From the NCBI GenBank assembly GCA_022775045.1, contig JALFLB010000011.1:23384-87383 (forward strand): a stretch of DNA of 64,000 bases, read 5' to 3'. This stretch comes from Agathobacter sp. (GTDB lineage: Bacteria > Bacillota > Clostridia > Lachnospirales > Lachnospiraceae). The notes under the pieces were generated by a model. The model did no database searches. It was not told the origin of the DNA and worked only from the letters and a program-made list of their open reading frames with translations. The position numbers and the translations under genes were made by a program. Below are positions 3,452 through 54,119 of this stretch, one piece after another (positions within the stretch are counted from its first letter, which is position 1; every line of letters begins with the position of its first letter).

Positions 3452-3572
3452 CTCTTATTCAGAGTGATGGAGATACATAGGATCTGTGAAGTCACGGCAA
3501 CCCCTGTTATAGATGAGAATAATCATCATTGTGGAAGGTGCTAACCTGAGCGAGTTTATCGAACAATAAGAG
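3452..3572 (+). ncRNA. SAM-I (S-box) riboswitch aptamer
   Basis: P1 CTCTTATT/AATAAGAG, CAGAG...GGAG, CGGCAACC...GGTGCTAA core; directly upstream of metK and followed by a terminator. Confidence 0.88.
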
Positions 3573-8746: not shown

Positions 8747-8796
8747 ATTCCCATTTTTACCTATTGCAAAATCACAAAAAATAAATTATAATGACC

Positions 8797-8894
8797 TCGT
8801 TATATGACTGACGGAACAAGTGAGGAAGGTTTGAATCACTTAGAATGTGGAGCACCACGTGAAGTATAACGTATATGAGCCGACCGTCTGGGCA
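8797..8894 (+). ncRNA. ZMP/ZTP (pfl) riboswitch
   Basis: TGACTGACGGA...GTGGAGCACCAC...GCCGACCGTCTGGGCA signature upstream of pflB. Promoter TTGCAA-17-TATAAT at 8764-8792. Confidence 0.9.
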
Positions 8895-8917
8895 GAGAAG
8901 CCCGGATGGTCTTTTTT
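8882..8917 (+). terminator. Terminator of the ZTP riboswitch expression platform
   Basis: GACCGTCTGGGC/GCCCGGATGGTC stem (with G.U pairs) plus T-run; the left arm is the aptamer 3' element. Confidence 0.85.
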
Positions 8918-29574: not shown

Positions 29575-29692
29575 ACTATGCAAAAATGGAGAAAAAGAGA
29601 TAAATGAGAGGATTATGGATTTTCAAAAATCTGCTTGTCAACGGGAATAGATTATGATATAATTCAACACTGTCAGAGTGATTTGACAAAAT

Positions 29693-29774
29693 GGGCAGAT
29701 TCCCGAGTGGCCAAAGGGGGCAGACTGTAAATCTGCTGCAAATTGCTTCGGTGGTTCGAATCCACCTCTGCCCA
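29693..29774 (+). tRNA. tRNA-Tyr (GTA), CCA not encoded
   Basis: Acceptor GGGCAGA/TCTGCCC, anticodon GTA at 29727-29729, long variable arm and GGTTCGAAT T-loop. Promoter TTGTCA-17-TATAAT at 29635-29663. Confidence 0.96.
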
Positions 29775-29776
29775 TG

Positions 29777-47954: not shown

Positions 47955-48509
47955 ATGAAAGACTGTATTACTACATATACGAAAATTCAATTCAATACAT
48001 TTGAGCCGGAGGAGAATAAAATTTGTATTGAGGACATTGCTCATGCACTTTCAATGATGACACGTGCAAACGGTCATTTTCCGGAGTTTTTCTCTGTGGG
48101 ACAGCATTGCATTCAGTGCTGCCGGGAGGCAGTCGCACGAAATTATGTGCCGGAAACGGCACTTGCCTGTCTTCTGCATGATGGCAGTGAGGCATATCTG
48201 GCTGATGTGACGCGCCCGGTCAAGAAAAATATGACTATGTATCTGCAGATTGAGGAGCAACTGCAAAATATGATTTATCACAAATTTCTGGGCTATGTGC
48301 CACAGGGAGAAGAGGAAGTGCTTGTCAAGAACATAGATGACACCTGCCTGTATTTTGAATTTGCCCATTTTATGGATGAGAGGCTGGCACCTGCAGAGCC
48401 CGTGATGATGAGTGATCCTCATTATGAAGTTCGTCCGATGAAGGAAGTGGAGGAGGAGTTCTTGAAACTTTTCCATCAATTGAAGAAGGAAATTACAGAA
48501 GATGAATAA
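47955..48509 (+). CDS. HD-domain phosphohydrolase (YfbR-like/phage-type nucleotidase family)
   Basis: IEDIAHALS...RANGH...SVGQHC...LLHDGSEAYLADV. Confidence 0.8.
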   Translation: MKDCITTYTKIQFNTFEPEENKICIEDIAHALSMMTRANGHFPEFFSVGQHCIQCCREAVARNYVPETALACLLHDGSEAYLADVTRPVKKNMTMYLQIEEQLQNMIYHKFLGYVPQGEEEVLVKNIDDTCLYFEFAHFMDERLAPAEPVMMSDPHYEVRPMKEVEEEFLKLFHQLKKEITEDE

Positions 48510-49788
48510 AAAGGAAATATTGGAATTAAAGAGAAGATTCAAGAAAGATGCCGCAACCTTTACAAGGGTTTGCGGCTGTTATGTCGATTGCAACCACAAT
48601 AAGATTTGTAAGTTCGGCAATACATTTTTAAATTTGGAGGAAGATGAGTTTTACAAGTATCTGGAAATTGCAAATAAGGCACTGTCCGGAACACTTGGGA
48701 ATAATCTGTTGGAACTGCATTTTCCGATTGAGGAGGAAGAGGTTGGTGGTCGCCAGCAGATTCTGATGGCACTTCGTGAGACAAAGCTTCAGGATGAGGC
48801 ACTGCTTGACACCTATTATGATCTGGTGATTGATTCCTATGACCATGCGGGCAATTATTTGATAGTGCTTTTTCATGATGCTTATGATGTCATGACGCGC
48901 ACCAGTGACAATAACAATCTCGATGAGTCTGAGGAAGTGTATGAGTATCTGATCTGTGCAATCTGTCCTGTGGATCTCTCCAAGCCGGGACTTGGTTTTT
49001 TGGAGAATGAGCAACGAATTGGACCGCGTGTAAGGGACTGGGTTGTGGGAGCTGTGGATACTGCCTTTTTATTTCCGGCATTTAACGATCGAAGCACCGA
49101 TATTCATTCAACGCTTTTCTATACGAAGAATACAAAGGAGCCGCATTCGGAGTTTATGGCAAATGGTCTGGGGTGTGGTGTGGAGCGTACAGCAACAGAG
49201 CAGAAGATGGCGTTTCATTCGATTGTTCGCAATGTGTTAGGAGCAGAGGATGAGCATACGGATGATGTTCTTTTGGATATTCAGCAGAATTTAAGTGAGA
49301 TGATTGATGAGTATCAGGAGACTCATGATGACGAGGAGGATGTGTTCCTGCTGGATAAGGAAGTTGTTGGAAAGCTTTTGGCTGACAGTGATATCTCCGA
49401 GGAGAAGGCGGCGCGTATCGAGAAATCCGTGGATGAGGCATTTGGTGAGAAGCCGCCAATCGCAGAGCATGTGATTGATGCGAAGGCGCTTGTACAGAAC
49501 GAGCTTCGAGTGGAGAAGCTGGCCCTTGAGGATCAGGTTGGAGATCTGACGTTGCAGCTCAACCAGAAGGAAGACGAGTTGAAGGAGCGTACGAACCAGC
49601 TTGTTGAGAAGCAGGAGGAGATTGACAATTATATTGCAGAGACGAAGACGTATGATGTGGTGCTTAGGGTAAAGCCAGAGAAGGCAGCACAGATTCAGTC
49701 GAAGGTAATTGATGGGCAGAAGTGTCTTGTTATTCCGATGAAGGAAGACGAACACGCAACCATAAACGGGGTGAATACTACCGTATAG
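48502..49788 (+). CDS. DUF4317-like acidic protein
   Basis: MNKKEILELKRRF..., FLFPAFNDRSTDIH and C-terminal coiled coil; family recognised from memory. Confidence 0.7.
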   Translation: MNKKEILELKRRFKKDAATFTRVCGCYVDCNHNKICKFGNTFLNLEEDEFYKYLEIANKALSGTLGNNLLELHFPIEEEEVGGRQQILMALRETKLQDEALLDTYYDLVIDSYDHAGNYLIVLFHDAYDVMTRTSDNNNLDESEEVYEYLICAICPVDLSKPGLGFLENEQRIGPRVRDWVVGAVDTAFLFPAFNDRSTDIHSTLFYTKNTKEPHSEFMANGLGCGVERTATEQKMAFHSIVRNVLGAEDEHTDDVLLDIQQNLSEMIDEYQETHDDEEDVFLLDKEVVGKLLADSDISEEKAARIEKSVDEAFGEKPPIAEHVIDAKALVQNELRVEKLALEDQVGDLTLQLNQKEDELKERTNQLVEKQEEIDNYIAETKTYDVVLRVKPEKAAQIQSKVIDGQKCLVIPMKEDEHATINGVNTTV

Positions 49789-49825
49789 TTTAGTTATTGA
49801 TTATTGGGAAAGGAAGAAGAGCCGC

Positions 49826-52531
49826 TTGGTACTTGGAATTCTGGCACATGTAGATGCAGGTAAGACAACTTTATCAGAGGCAATGCTCTATACCACAGGG
49901 CAGATTCGGACACTCGGCAGAGTCGATCATCAGGACGCTTATCTGGATACGGATGAACAGGAAAGAAAGCGTGGAATAACGATTTTTTCCAAACAGGCCC
50001 GTTTGAAAGACTGGACTCTTCTTGATACCCCGGGACATGTGGATTTTTCTGCAGAGATGGAGCGGACTCTGCAGGTTCTTGATTATGCAATTCTTGTAAT
50101 CAGCGGTACGGATGGTGTGCAGGGGCACACCCGTACTCTGTGGCGGCTTCTTCGCCATTATGAGATTCCCACATTCATTTTTGTGAATAAGATGGATTTG
50201 CCTGGGGCAGATCGTGCTTTTGTACAGACACAGCTTAAGAAGGAACTGTCGGATGGCTGTGTGGATTTTACCCAGAGTCAGGAGGCTGAGGGGGAACTGA
50301 CGGATGCATTTTATGAGGAGATTGCGGTCTGTGGAGAGGACTTTCTGGATGAATACATGCACAATGGGGAGATTGCGATTGACCACATTGCGGAAGGAAT
50401 CACTCAGAGACTTGTATTCCCTTGTTTTTACGGTTCAGCACTCCGGCTGGAGGGAATTGAAACATTTCTTACAGGACTTTCCCGGTATATGCGAAAGCCG
50501 GATTATGGTAGTGATTTTGCTGCACGGGTTTACAAAATTGGGCGGGATGTGCGTGGTGCGCGCCTGACCTATTTGAAAGTGACTGGTGGAAAGCTGCGGG
50601 TGAAAGAACGGATTTCCTACGATGGTCTGGAGGAGAAGGTGGATCAGATCCGGCTCTATTCCGGGGATAAGTATGAGACTACGGAGGAACTTGCGGCAGG
50701 TGAGGTCTGTGCGGTGACCGGGCTTACTGCTACATATCCAGGGCAGGGACTGGGGGCAGAGCAGGCGACAAGCGCTCCTTTGCTGGAGCCGGTATTAAAT
50801 TATCAGATAAGACTTCCGCAGGATGTCAATCCGGTTGAGATGATGGGAAAGCTCAAATTGCTGGAAGAGGAAGATCCGCAGCTTCACATTCTCTGGAATG
50901 AACAGCTGCAGGAGATCCATGTGCAGATGATGGGGCAGGTGCAGATTGAAGTACTGACTCAGCTCATCAAAGAGCGGTTTGGTGTTGTGGTTGCCTTTGG
51001 CCAGGGGAATATCGTCTATAAAGAGACGATTGCAAAACCAGTGGAGGGAATCGGACACTTTGAGCCGCTGCGCCATTATGCTGAGGTGCATCTGCTGTTA
51101 GAGCCGGCGGAGCCGGGAAGTGGGATTCAGGTATCCAGCGTTTGTAGTGAAGATGTGCTGGATTTAAATTGGCAGCGCCTGATTGCGACTCATGTGACGG
51201 AGCGGGAGCATCCCGGGGTACTGACCGGTTCGGTACTTACGGATGTGAAAGTTACAATTTTGACGGGACGTGCCCACACGAAGCATACAGAGGGCGGAGA
51301 TTTCCGGCAGGCAACCTACCGTGCCATCCGGCAGGGACTCAAAAGCACCCGGAGTGTACTCTTGGAGCCGATGTATGCCTTTTCCTTAGAAGTGCCGCAG
51401 GAGACGGTGGGACGGGCTATGACAGATTTAAAACAGCGCTGTGGAATGTTTGATTCACCGCAGTTTGTTTCCGGCTCACATGGGGATATGGCAGTGTTGA
51501 CCGGTAAAGTCCCAGTTTCTACCATGCAGGATTACAGCGCGGAAGTGGCAGCCTATACAAGCGGAAAGGGACATCTGACGCTGGAGTTGGCTGGGTATGA
51601 TGTGTGCCACAACAGCGAGGAAGTAATTGCATCTATTGGTTACGACAGCGAGGCGGATACAGCCAATCCGACGGGCTCGGTGTTCTGTGCGCACGGTGCA
51701 GGCTTTCTTGTACCGTGGGATGAGGTGGACCGCTATATGCATCTGGAGCGGGTCATTGATTCGAATCAATATACGTTAGCAGCAGGAAATGGACGCACCT
51801 ATGATATGACAGGAGCAGCTTACAGTGCCGGGGAAGCAGATTCCCTGACCGGAATTAAGAGGCGCGGAAGCTGGGAGAAGTCCGTGTCTAATATGAGCTC
51901 CTTAGAACTGGACAAGGAACTGGCGGATGTGTACGCCAGAGAGTTTGGCATGAGCCGGGAGGACATGGAAGAGCAGGAGCGACGCAAATGGAGTCAGAAG
52001 AAGCCGGATAAGTTAAAGGCACCCACAGTAAAGCATGATAAAAAGGGAAATCCAATCTACCCGGCCAAGGGACCACAGGAGCGTATGCTTGTGGTGGATG
52101 GTTATAACATTATTTTTGCTTGGAAGGATCTGAACGAATTGTCCCGGGTGAATATTGCTTCGGCAAGGGATCGGCTAAAGGATATTCTGCTTAATTATCA
52201 GGGGTATGAAGGCTGCCGTCTGGTTGTGGTTTTCGATGCCTATAAGGTAAAGGATAATGCTGGAAAGAAGGAATTCTATGACGGGAGGCGAAAGCGTCAG
52301 GGCGCAGGAAATCCGTCCGGCGATATTGGAATTGAAGTGGTGTACACCCGCACCGATGAGACTGCCGATGCTTATATTGAGAGGCTGGTGCATGATGAGA
52401 AGGGACATTACCATATCTCCGTTGCCACAAATGACGGGCTGGTGCAGCTTACGGTTATGAGTCAGGGTGCCCTTCGTATGTCGGCGGAGAATCTGCGTGA
52501 GGAGATTGCGAGAGCCGGGCAAAAAGGATAA
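49826..52531 (+). CDS. EF-G/TetM-like translational GTPase fused to a C-terminal NYN (YacP/Rae1-like) domain
   Basis: AHVDAGKTT, RGITI, DTPGH and NKMD, EF-G domains II-V, then VDGYN...VFDA...ETAD...ATND; TTG start. Confidence 0.9.
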   Translation: MVLGILAHVDAGKTTLSEAMLYTTGQIRTLGRVDHQDAYLDTDEQERKRGITIFSKQARLKDWTLLDTPGHVDFSAEMERTLQVLDYAILVISGTDGVQGHTRTLWRLLRHYEIPTFIFVNKMDLPGADRAFVQTQLKKELSDGCVDFTQSQEAEGELTDAFYEEIAVCGEDFLDEYMHNGEIAIDHIAEGITQRLVFPCFYGSALRLEGIETFLTGLSRYMRKPDYGSDFAARVYKIGRDVRGARLTYLKVTGGKLRVKERISYDGLEEKVDQIRLYSGDKYETTEELAAGEVCAVTGLTATYPGQGLGAEQATSAPLLEPVLNYQIRLPQDVNPVEMMGKLKLLEEEDPQLHILWNEQLQEIHVQMMGQVQIEVLTQLIKERFGVVVAFGQGNIVYKETIAKPVEGIGHFEPLRHYAEVHLLLEPAEPGSGIQVSSVCSEDVLDLNWQRLIATHVTEREHPGVLTGSVLTDVKVTILTGRAHTKHTEGGDFRQATYRAIRQGLKSTRSVLLEPMYAFSLEVPQETVGRAMTDLKQRCGMFDSPQFVSGSHGDMAVLTGKVPVSTMQDYSAEVAAYTSGKGHLTLELAGYDVCHNSEEVIASIGYDSEADTANPTGSVFCAHGAGFLVPWDEVDRYMHLERVIDSNQYTLAAGNGRTYDMTGAAYSAGEADSLTGIKRRGSWEKSVSNMSSLELDKELADVYAREFGMSREDMEEQERRKWSQKKPDKLKAPTVKHDKKGNPIYPAKGPQERMLVVDGYNIIFAWKDLNELSRVNIASARDRLKDILLNYQGYEGCRLVVVFDAYKVKDNAGKKEFYDGRRKRQGAGNPSGDIGIEVVYTRTDETADAYIERLVHDEKGHYHISVATNDGLVQLTVMSQGALRMSAENLREEIARAGQKG

Positions 52532-52550
52532 AGTGATAGGAGGAGAAATT

Positions 52551-53744
52551 ATGATAGTTGCAGAAGATATGTACAGATTAGGAAGTCAGCGTTCGGCAAT
52601 CCGGGAATTGTTTGAATATGGAAAACAGAGAGCAGCAGTTGTGGGAGCAGAGAATGTGTACGATTTTTCTCTGGGGAATCCGACTGTTCCGGCACCGGCA
52701 TGTGTCAATGAAACGATTCGCCAGTTGACGGAGTCACTGGATTCCATCTCGCTGCATGGTTACACATCCGCCCAGGGAGATGAGGAGACAAGGGCAGCCA
52801 TTGCAGCTTATCTCAACCGGGCGCATGGCACGCATTTCCGTGAGGATAATTTCTATATAACAATGGGCGCAGCGGCATCGTTGTCCATCTGCTTTCGTGC
52901 ACTGACCACCAGTCCGGAAGATGAATTTATTGCGATTGCACCATTCTTTCCGGAGTATCGGGTATTTGTTGAGGCAAATGGTGCAAAGCTTGTGATTGTT
53001 CCGGCGGACACCGAAACTTTTCAGATTAATTTCGAGGAACTGGAAAAGGCTGTGAATTCCCATACGAAGGGAGTAATTATCAATTCCCCGAACAATCCGT
53101 CCGGTGCGGTGTATTCGGAGGAGACGATTCAGAAGCTGGCAGACTTGCTTCGTGGAAAATCAAAGGAATTTGGAACGGAGATTTTCATTCTTGCAGATGA
53201 ACCATATCGTGAAATTGTCTATGATGGAGTGCAGGTTCCATTTGTTACGAAGTATTATGACAACACACTGGTATGCTATTCCTACAGCAAGTCATTGTCT
53301 CTGCCGGGAGAGAGAATCGGTTACGTTTTGGTGCCGGATGAGGTGACGGAGAGCGAAACTGTGTATGCGGCGGTTGCAGGAGCCGGACGTGCCCTTGGTT
53401 ATGTTTGTGCGCCGAGTATGTTCCAGAAGGTTCTTGTGCAGTGCATGGGACAGACGGGAGATGTGGAACTCTATAAGAAGAACCGGGATTTGCTCTATGA
53501 AGGGCTGACGAAAATCGGATACGAATGCTTTCAACCGCAAGGCGCCTTCTACCTGTTTGTGAAGGCACTGGATCCGGATGCGGATGCTTTCTGTGAGCGG
53601 GCAAAGGAGGAGGATCTGCTTATTGTTTCCGCCACAGGCTTTGGCTGTCCGGGTTATGTACGCATTTCCTATTGTGTGGATGAGGATATGATCCAGCGTT
53701 CCTTTGGGGCTTTTGAGAGGTTATACAATAAGTATGAGCACTAA
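52551..53744 (+). CDS. Class I/II PLP-dependent aminotransferase (aspartate aminotransferase-like)
   Basis: FSLGNP, INSPNNPSG, ADEPY and SYSKSLSLPGERIG. Confidence 0.92.
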   Translation: MIVAEDMYRLGSQRSAIRELFEYGKQRAAVVGAENVYDFSLGNPTVPAPACVNETIRQLTESLDSISLHGYTSAQGDEETRAAIAAYLNRAHGTHFREDNFYITMGAAASLSICFRALTTSPEDEFIAIAPFFPEYRVFVEANGAKLVIVPADTETFQINFEELEKAVNSHTKGVIINSPNNPSGAVYSEETIQKLADLLRGKSKEFGTEIFILADEPYREIVYDGVQVPFVTKYYDNTLVCYSYSKSLSLPGERIGYVLVPDEVTESETVYAAVAGAGRALGYVCAPSMFQKVLVQCMGQTGDVELYKKNRDLLYEGLTKIGYECFQPQGAFYLFVKALDPDADAFCERAKEEDLLIVSATGFGCPGYVRISYCVDEDMIQRSFGAFERLYNKYEH

Positions 53745-54009: not shown

Positions 54010-54119
54010 TTTGGAAAATGGATTTTAAAAAATGGCGCAGTGCGGCTATGAACGCTCAGCAGGAGTGCCGGTAAAAGCGAGCCCCTCAATTTTGAGGGGC
54101 TTGGACACTTTTTATGAAA

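Follow-up and report, generated by a model that had tools for sequence, protein, structure and literature searches.

Within a 64,000-nucleotide stretch of Agathobacter sp. DNA (the window), a single 901-amino-acid open reading frame (ORF) at positions 49826-52531 of the plus strand, opened by a TTG codon, encodes a GTPase of the elongation factor G (EF-G)/TetM type joined through a long linker to a NYN nuclease domain of the Rae1/YacP family. Comparison of sequences leads us to regard this fusion protein, with moderate confidence, as a GTPase-tethered Rae1 orthologue that probably serves stalled or collided ribosomes. Rae1 is a ribosome-dependent mRNA endonuclease, a point of the preliminary description of this DNA that published work bears out: it cleaves mRNA only during translation, and on stalled ribosomes its cut lies 12 nt upstream of the codon in the A site. 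The site at which Rae1 engages the ribosome is debated, the A site having been proposed in 2017, the tail end in 2025, and collisions in 2026, when a preprint tied Rae1 to ribosome collisions and to tagging by tmRNA. The parts of the fusion protein are listed below; conservation, here and throughout, refers to a family alignment of 214 distinct proteins, namely, the window protein and 213 others from species-representative Clostridia genomes, and model confidence is given as the predicted local distance difference test (pLDDT).

49832-50491, plus strand: G domain with G' insertion (residues 3-222; Pfam GTP_EFTU, E-value of 3e-46).
50516-51001, plus strand: EF-G domains II and III (residues 231-392; Pfam EF-G_D2 at 231-301 and EFG_III at 321-392).
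51008-51346, plus strand: domain IV (residues 395-507; Pfam EFG_IV).
51053-51085, plus strand: loop I, GHFEPLRHYAE (residues 410-420; near-invariant in the 214 sequences).
51266-51307, plus strand: loop III, GRAHTKHTEGGDFR (residues 481-494; near-invariant in the 214 sequences).
51356-51616, plus strand: domain V (residues 511-597; Pfam EFG_C, E-value of 3e-19).
51617-51745, plus strand: conserved extension at the C-terminal end of the GTPase module (residues 598-640, ...NPTGSVFCAHGAGFLVPWDEVDRYMH; defined by family conservation).
51746-52078, plus strand: flexible linker (residues 641-751; pLDDT mostly 36-55, variable in sequence and length).
52079-52528, plus strand: Rae1/YacP NYN domain (residues 752-901; Pfam NYN_YacP at 755-899, E-value of 1.4e-38).
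52283-52327, plus strand: basic insertion GRRKRQGAGNPSGDI between NYN strands (residues 820-834, with GRRKRQG at 820-826; low pLDDT).

The NYN_YacP model (PF05991) scored 132.9 bits with the C-terminal domain, against a gathering threshold of 24.6, and the structures of Bacillus subtilis YacP/Rae1 (PDB 5mq8 and 5mq9) matched it with an E-value of 6e-18. Because of these E-values and those listed above, the domain identities are not due to chance. The acidic motifs that the preliminary description had recognized as those of Rae1 (VDGYN, VFDA, ETAD, and ATND) indeed aligned with the two structures, as VVDGYN (756-761), VFDA (802-805), DETAD (844-848), and ATND (867-870). Their acidic residues D758, D804, D848, and D870 were present in 213 or 214 of the 214 family members. 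By alignment, D758 and D848 correspond to D7 and D81 of Rae1, the residues that were changed in the published catalytic mutant. Overall, the NYN domain of the window protein is 39% identical to B. subtilis Rae1 (31 to 52% across the family, mostly 38 to 52%) and has all four acidic residues, including the D7/D81 pair. Unlike Rae1, a stand-alone protein of ~170 residues, it lies C-terminal to a 600-residue GTPase and a long tether. It also differs from Rae1 by the basic insertion, to which the preliminary description had drawn attention: the insertion is there, but most family members lack it, so it is a lineage-specific trait and not a family feature.

The N-terminal module shows both traits by which the EF2/EF-G family is recognized, the five-domain layout (Pfam) and the G1-G5 motifs with the catalytic His of DxxGH. 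As first claimed, the set of GTPase motifs is complete: AHVDAGKT (7-14), RGITI (49-53), DTPGH (67-71), NKMD (121-124), and GSAL (203-206) were all located, and D10, G12, K13, T14, T52, D67, G70, H71, N121, K122, and D124 were invariant (214/214). Both modules of the protein look catalytically intact, and the GTPase module is presumably active in a ribosome-dependent manner. An AlphaFold2 model (mean pLDDT of 75) adopted the EF-G fold, and its top Foldseek matches were EF-G structures, with a probability of 1.0. In a sequence search of the PDB, the best matches were Tet(O) (E-value of 1e-70) and Tet(M) (4e-67), each in one collinear alignment of ~590 residues; EF-G structures ranked after them, in split alignments. 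With EF-G, the module shares the fold, the G1-G5 motifs, and a His (H484) equivalent to H573. However, the two are only ~25% identical, loop I lacks the QTGGRGQ tip, loop III is not YH[DE]VDSS, the G' region cannot be aligned in one piece, and the fusion adds an extension, a tether, and a nuclease. With Tet(M) and Tet(O), the module has in common the five-domain layout, a Tet-type G' region, and an extension after domain V.

This resemblance raises the question of whether the protein is a tetracycline ribosomal protection protein (RPP), with the NYN domain as an accessory or as part of a novel resistance mechanism, as suggested by Atkinson 2015. That study placed these proteins in the Tet subfamily. 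The top NCBIfam model is the generic RPP model tet_protect (NF012153), and Tet(O) and Tet(M) are the best, collinear PDB matches. The best 120 database matches carry names as different as "small GTP-binding protein," "NYN domain-containing protein," and [quoted passage not shown] so the mislabeling foreseen in the preliminary description does occur in some public records. However, the protein scored far under every curated RPP cutoff: 408 bits versus 775 for NF012153, 271 versus 1100 for NF033148, 225 versus 1420 for NF012155, and 288 versus 900 for NF000120. The EF-G equivalog models were also under their cutoffs (289 versus 659 for TIGR00484 and 310 versus 583 for NF009381).

The tip of domain IV speaks most directly to drug protection. 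The segment GRAHTKHTEGGDF (481-493) aligned with ...YYSPVSTPADF of TetM/TetO and with ...SYHEVDSSEMAF of Thermus thermophilus EF-G. In this alignment, TetM Y506-Y507-S508-P509-V510 pairs with A483-H484-T485-K486-H487, which puts K486 at the position of Pro509, a residue that in TetM sits in the tetracycline site against 16S C1054. The loop III signature across the family is G[RK]AHxKHTEGGDFR: K486 and H487 were found in 214/214 members, while H484, K486-H-T, G490-G-D-F-R, and the loop I residues G-H-[FY]-E-P-L-[RK]-H-Y-A-E were kept in 213 or 214 of them. Neither YSPVS nor H[DE]VDS was found in any of the 213 relatives, in line with the initial remark that the tip resembles neither the TetM loop nor the EF-G loop. 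Of the EF-G loop III residues, only the His is retained, H484 pairing with H573 of T. thermophilus EF-G; loop I is 4 residues shorter than that of EF-G. Given the Lys at the TetM Pro509 position and the RPP models far below cutoff, the fusion is in all likelihood not a genuine member of the tetracycline protection proteins. Beyond the swap of the drug-displacing loop III residues for the invariant AHxKH and the difference in loop I, the fusion departs from Tet(M)/Tet(O) by its added nuclease and by a chromosomal location off mobile elements with an old, vertical-looking distribution. The gene has no mobile context and no conserved neighbors and occurs in several hundred species at ~50% identity, as expected of an old housekeeping gene, and drug displacement leaves unexplained why the active site of the nuclease is so strictly conserved. 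We thus consider tetracycline protection, in simple form or with the nuclease as an accessory, to be very unlikely.

The extension that follows domain V sits where the TetM C-terminal extension does but is longer. Its consensus, NPTGSVFCAHGAGFxVPWDEV..YMH, is strongly conserved, and AlphaFold2 predicted a beta-hairpin (618-629) and a short helix (634-637) in it. A near-invariant C-H ... C-x-H arrangement (window positions 51605-51694), which TetM does not have, begins just upstream of the extension, at the end of domain V, with C594 (212/214) and H595 (184) and continues with C621 (214) and H623 (206). These four residues could form a small zinc site.

We then looked at how consistently the two halves occur together. 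Members of the family alignment were 49 to 78% identical to the window protein, and in a search of 5.8 billion proteins the best 120 matches had the same fused architecture, at 62 to 100% identity. When each GTDB species was represented by one genome, a scan produced at least 593 matches, of which the best 80 were inspected; all were single ORFs with a P-loop and DGYN, one of them cut by a contig end. Two more scans, seeded by apparent stand-alone NYN proteins, returned full fusions in 77 of 80 and 67 of 79 cases. The non-fusion remainder of the three scans consisted of stand-alone genes, cuts at contig ends, and two interrupted copies. The preliminary description would have abandoned the idea of a single-chain factor if the two domains had been separate genes in all relatives; instead, nearly every relative with enough flanking sequence has them in a single ORF. 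In the two interrupted copies (L092 and L178), a stop or frameshift disrupts the reading frame ahead of the NYN part; pseudogenes, split genes, and errors of assembly are all conceivable explanations. No stand-alone copy of the fusion-type GTPase was seen in any genome scan.

Members of the family occur in gut and rumen Clostridia, in several hundred species belonging to several orders. The closest relatives among the scan matches were metagenome-assembled genomes (MAGs) of Agathobacter and other Lachnospiraceae, with 76% identity for Agathobacter. Carriers in the Lachnospiraceae include Agathobacter, Roseburia, Mediterraneibacter, Enterocloster, Hungatella, Sellimonas, and Anaerobutyricum; further carriers are Blautia-group genera, Ruminococcus, Oscillospiraceae (including Intestinimonas), Cellulosilyticaceae, Clostridium amylolyticum, Desulfitobacterium, Desulfosporosinus, and Fusibacter. 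Five loci (L034, L216, L245, L293, and L299), with either the fusion or mrnC-rlmB, were on Lachnospiraceae-type contigs in MAGs labeled Bacteroides, Senegalimassilia, Paludibacteraceae, or Moraxellaceae, probably as a result of mis-binning or mislabeling. One member of 1046 residues (P0054) has a ~150-residue Gly/Ala/Arg-rich repeat (GRVGEPG-like) inside domain II.

True stand-alone rae1 genes exist in some Clostridia, and all seven that had enough flanking sequence (7/7) sit in the order cysS-mrnC-rlmB-rae1. The mean identity of NYN domains was 54% between fusions and clostridial stand-alone proteins, 57% within fusions, and 60% within stand-alone proteins, and both groups were ~45% identical to B. 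subtilis Rae1. Since identities within and between the groups are about equal, the fused NYN domain has not diverged from Rae1. Several short NYN proteins (P0211, P0141, P0244, and others) that had been taken for stand-alone Rae1 were rejected after the genome scans. Because the best relatives of P0211 and most of those of P0244 were C-terminal parts of fusions, most such short proteins are fragments from short contigs. Likewise, many of the 135- to 750-residue NYN proteins numbered P0121 to P0270, listed from a protein library clustered at 50%, have the NYN domain at the extreme C terminus and resemble N-terminally truncated fusions. Such fragments can pass for stand-alone Rae1 in surveys of domain architecture.

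The fusion gene of the window lies outside the cysS-mrnC-rlmB-rae1-sigH operon, a location that is typical of rae1 without defining it. We examined this operon in 80 Lachnospiraceae mrnC-rlmB loci sampled with RlmB as the probe, of which 2 had no room downstream. rae1 followed rlmB in 6 of the 78 scorable loci and was absent from the other 72. Anaeromicropila populeti (L267) keeps the order rlmB-rae1-sigH, as in B. subtilis, and rae1 also follows rlmB in five other species (L240, L241, L266, L268, and L298). In most Lachnospiraceae, rlmB and sigH are separated by ~16 to 30 nt, and rae1 looks like it has been cleanly excised from the conserved operon. Three of the 72 loci come from fusion-bearing assemblies (FOPE01, JBGVKW01, and JBGVHH01): in Lachnospiraceae bacterium C7 (rlmB locus L253 and fusion L011), Agathobacter MAG_296 (L270 and L004), and Agathobacter MAG_348 (L276 and L010), the two are on separate contigs and rlmB is directly followed by sigH. 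No second Rae1 was found in the window or in the flanks of the fusions. No other new evidence argues as strongly as this empty operon slot that the fusion serves its carriers as their Rae1 and is not an extra paralogue, and the fusion may be the only Rae1 that they have.

The company that rae1 keeps in its canonical operon, mini-RNase III (23S maturation) and the methyltransferase RlmB, is also what could be expected if the substrate were rRNA, with the GTPase bringing the NYN domain into place to mature rRNA or to inactivate or degrade defective or idle ribosomes. GTPase-stimulated cleavage of eukaryotic pre-18S rRNA by Nob1 provides an analogy, and rRNA would be near both the extension of the GTPase and the basic stretch that ends the tether. 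In addition, early bioinformatic papers (Atkinson 2015 and Matelska 2017) predicted a role in rRNA/tRNA processing. However, all experimentally defined substrates of Rae1 are mRNAs, cleaved in a translation-dependent manner, the fused NYN domain has not diverged from that of stand-alone Rae1, and the fusion gene lies outside the rRNA-processing operon. An rRNA target is therefore unlikely in our view, and an mRNA substrate, as for Rae1 itself, is what we favor.

The two halves are connected by ~110 residues, the first part being acidic with low-confidence helices and the last ~35 residues being Lys-rich (RRKWSQKKPDKLKAPTVKHDKKGNPIYPAKGP). In the 214 members, the span from W631 to D758 ranges from 81 to 162 residues (median, 97), and the acidic-then-basic charge pattern is conserved, the last 35 residues being net positive in 92% of members. 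The AlphaFold2 model, together with Foldseek, gave an EF-G fold and a confident NYN domain separated by this low-confidence linker, with a predicted template modeling score (pTM) of 0.46 and no confident contacts between domains. The placement of the NYN domain relative to the GTPase was set aside on account of this pTM and the low pLDDT of the tether. A long, variable, and predicted-disordered linker without confident inter-domain contacts would also suit two uncoupled halves, that is, an additional EF-G-like factor for translocation or recycling and a Rae1 fused for co-regulation only. Against this stands the retention of the fusion in 214 members from several orders of Clostridia, with two interrupted copies only, and the failure of every scan to turn up the GTPase on its own. 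Moreover, the domain IV loops form a unique, invariant signature that is not EF-G-like, and EF-G models score below cutoff. We give uncoupled halves only a slim chance and return to the GTPase-tethered Rae1 orthologue.

Both EF-G and the Tet proteins occupy the factor site of the ribosome, insert domain IV into the 30S A site, and exit after GTP hydrolysis; factor-site binding with domain IV in the A site is presumed for the fusion as well. We infer that, in its GTP form, the five-domain module would bind the ribosomal factor site and that domain IV, with its His/Lys-rich tip, would probe the 30S A site and select a stalled ribosome. The feature selected could be a vacant A site or a block in translocation, as in a ribosome that has collided. 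The NYN domain, on its basic-ended tether of 81 to 162 residues, which could extend out of the inter-subunit space, would then reach mRNA outside the A site, and the four conserved aspartates would perform the cleavage. The likeliest place for the cut would be the ribosome edge or the mRNA between the ribosomes of a collided pair, which is also where the current model puts the cut of B. subtilis Rae1. GTP hydrolysis at the sarcin-ricin loop would free the factor, and the shortened mRNA would enter trans-translation. The geometry of such a mechanism would require a long tether.

Several points weigh against this proposal. If domain IV fills the A site, the NYN domain cannot cut there simultaneously, and with the nuclease excluded from the A site, the mechanism fits the revised model of Rae1 better than the original A-site model. 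The geometry of the tether is guesswork. In the window protein, the Pfam match covers positions 1 to 132 of the 166 of the NYN_YacP model and the protein ends 2 residues later (52523-52531), so the last ~35 model positions are missing and the C-terminal tail of YacP (~40 residues) is gone. Stand-alone Rae1 and most other fusions keep a tail of ~30 to 50 residues (median of 38 in fusions), and its loss is a trait of the Agathobacter-like clade. The fusion gene has the highest GC content (0.509) and third-position GC content (GC3; 0.522) of the 42 ORFs in the window, the means of the remaining ORFs being 0.445 ± 0.023 and 0.449 ± 0.037, respectively; this could reflect amino acid composition or an old horizontal acquisition. 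Direct evidence for the presence of the fusion together with the absence of the operon copy comes from three genomes only. Finally, because a neighbor-joining tree of the ~130-residue NYN domain leaves the monophyly of the fused domains undecided, we draw no conclusion on the number of fusion events.

A bolder extension of the proposal, which we put forward tentatively and regard as less likely than not to hold in full, treats the fusion as a "Rosetta stone" for Rae1 in Gram-positive bacteria at large. Rae1 would work beside a ribosome with a free factor site, and in most Lachnospiraceae and numerous further Clostridia its targeting would be hard-wired by fusion to a sensor derived from EF-G/TetM. 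The invariant tip of domain IV would read, for example, the trailing, translocation-blocked ribosome of a collided pair, the nuclease would act on the mRNA between the two ribosomes, at the -12 position mapped for Rae1 of B. subtilis, and GTP hydrolysis would serve as a licensing and release step. The fusion would then represent a new, nuclease-delivery class of translational GTPases, a single-chain counterpart of Hbs1/Dom34 plus Cue2. Recognition of stalled or collided ribosomes is likewise coupled to an endonuclease in MutS2 of B. subtilis, SmrB of Escherichia coli, and Hbs1-Dom34 with Cue2/NONU-1; MutS2 also joins an NTPase to a nuclease, and Hbs1, itself a translational GTPase, brings a rescue factor to the ribosome. 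The comparison is an analogy that implies no homology: the folds are unrelated (SMR versus NYN, and ABC/MutS ATPase versus EF-G-type GTPase), and none of these systems is targeted via an EF-G-like body.

The start of the fusion gene and its upstream neighbor are as follows.

49810-49816 and 49826-49828, plus strand: ribosome-binding site AAGGAAG and TTG start codon (read from the sequence; Shine-Dalgarno 9 nt upstream).
48502-49788: DUF4317 gene (E-value of 8e-135; its stop lies 38 nt before the fusion start).

Homologues start at the same position, some of them with ATG. The neighbors of the fusion in the window are the DUF4317 gene and genes for MetAP, an aminotransferase, and an acylphosphatase. 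DUF4317 adjoins the fusion only among close relatives (12 of 80 loci), in several of them on the opposite strand, and is probably not a functional partner. The predicted aminotransferase ORF (52467-53744) runs over the end of the fusion gene, but homologues place the true start at ATG 52548, 17 nt past the fusion stop. A metatranscriptome contig crosses the junction between the two genes, and the sole strong terminator is at 54078-54103. Together with the relocated start, this suggests that the fusion is co-transcribed with the aminotransferase and acylphosphatase genes. The window sequence was found in pig-gut metagenomes, and both halves of the gene are represented by pieces in pig-gut metatranscriptome assemblies, showing that it is transcribed. 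Elsewhere, the window contains a SAM riboswitch (3452-3572; 63.5 bits), a ZMP/ZTP riboswitch (8794-8900; 52.1 bits), and tRNA-Tyr(GTA) (29692-29775), which are ordinary features of a Firmicutes chromosome.

Clustering of the flanking ORFs at 80 loci revealed no conserved operon partner, the next cluster being a generic ABC ATPase at 13 loci, and the helix-turn-helix association reported by Matelska 2017 was not seen in these flanks. No mobile-element or defense context was seen around the fusion, and PADLOC gave no match. These results bear on a last alternative, a toxin-like or anti-phage abortive-infection effector that would cut RNA on ribosomes. Fusions of nucleases with NTPases are common in defense systems, and the GC content of the gene is atypical for the window. 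However, the lack of a PADLOC match, defense island, antitoxin, mobile context, or conserved neighbor, combined with a single conserved copy over hundreds of species, makes such a role extremely improbable.

The fused architecture was on record before this analysis, as the preliminary description had surmised, and is less novel than that description implied. Atkinson 2015 (BMC Genomics) reported ten Clostridiales species whose Tet proteins have a YacP-like NYN domain and suggested an RNase test, and Matelska et al. 2017 (NAR) reported a TetM-like-NYN_YacP fusion in some Clostridia, leaving its role open. Their proteins belong to the same family, being single polypeptides with a Tet-like translational GTPase N-terminal to NYN_YacP; both studies dealt with the architecture only and made no link to mRNA cleavage by Rae1 or to loss of the stand-alone gene. 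We found neither a functional characterization, whose absence had been anticipated, nor a paper linking the fusion to the ribosome-dependent activity of Rae1 in the full-text literature, which did not cover Leroy 2017 and Condon 2018. Hence, the fusion itself is not a discovery; the new elements are how large the family is, the invariant signature of domain IV that sets it apart from Tet, and the emptied rae1 slot of the operon.

The resistance-gene labels carried by some records of the family could inflate resistome counts. If the fusion is the Rae1 of its carriers, a ribosome complex that can be trapped through the GTPase would be expected; such a complex would be suited to cryo-electron microscopy and would provide a handle on how Rae1 engages the ribosome. 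If our reading is true, delivery of an endonuclease would be a new job for the bacterial translational GTPase superfamily, and ribosome rescue in dominant gut anaerobes would probably not follow the models built on B. subtilis and E. coli.

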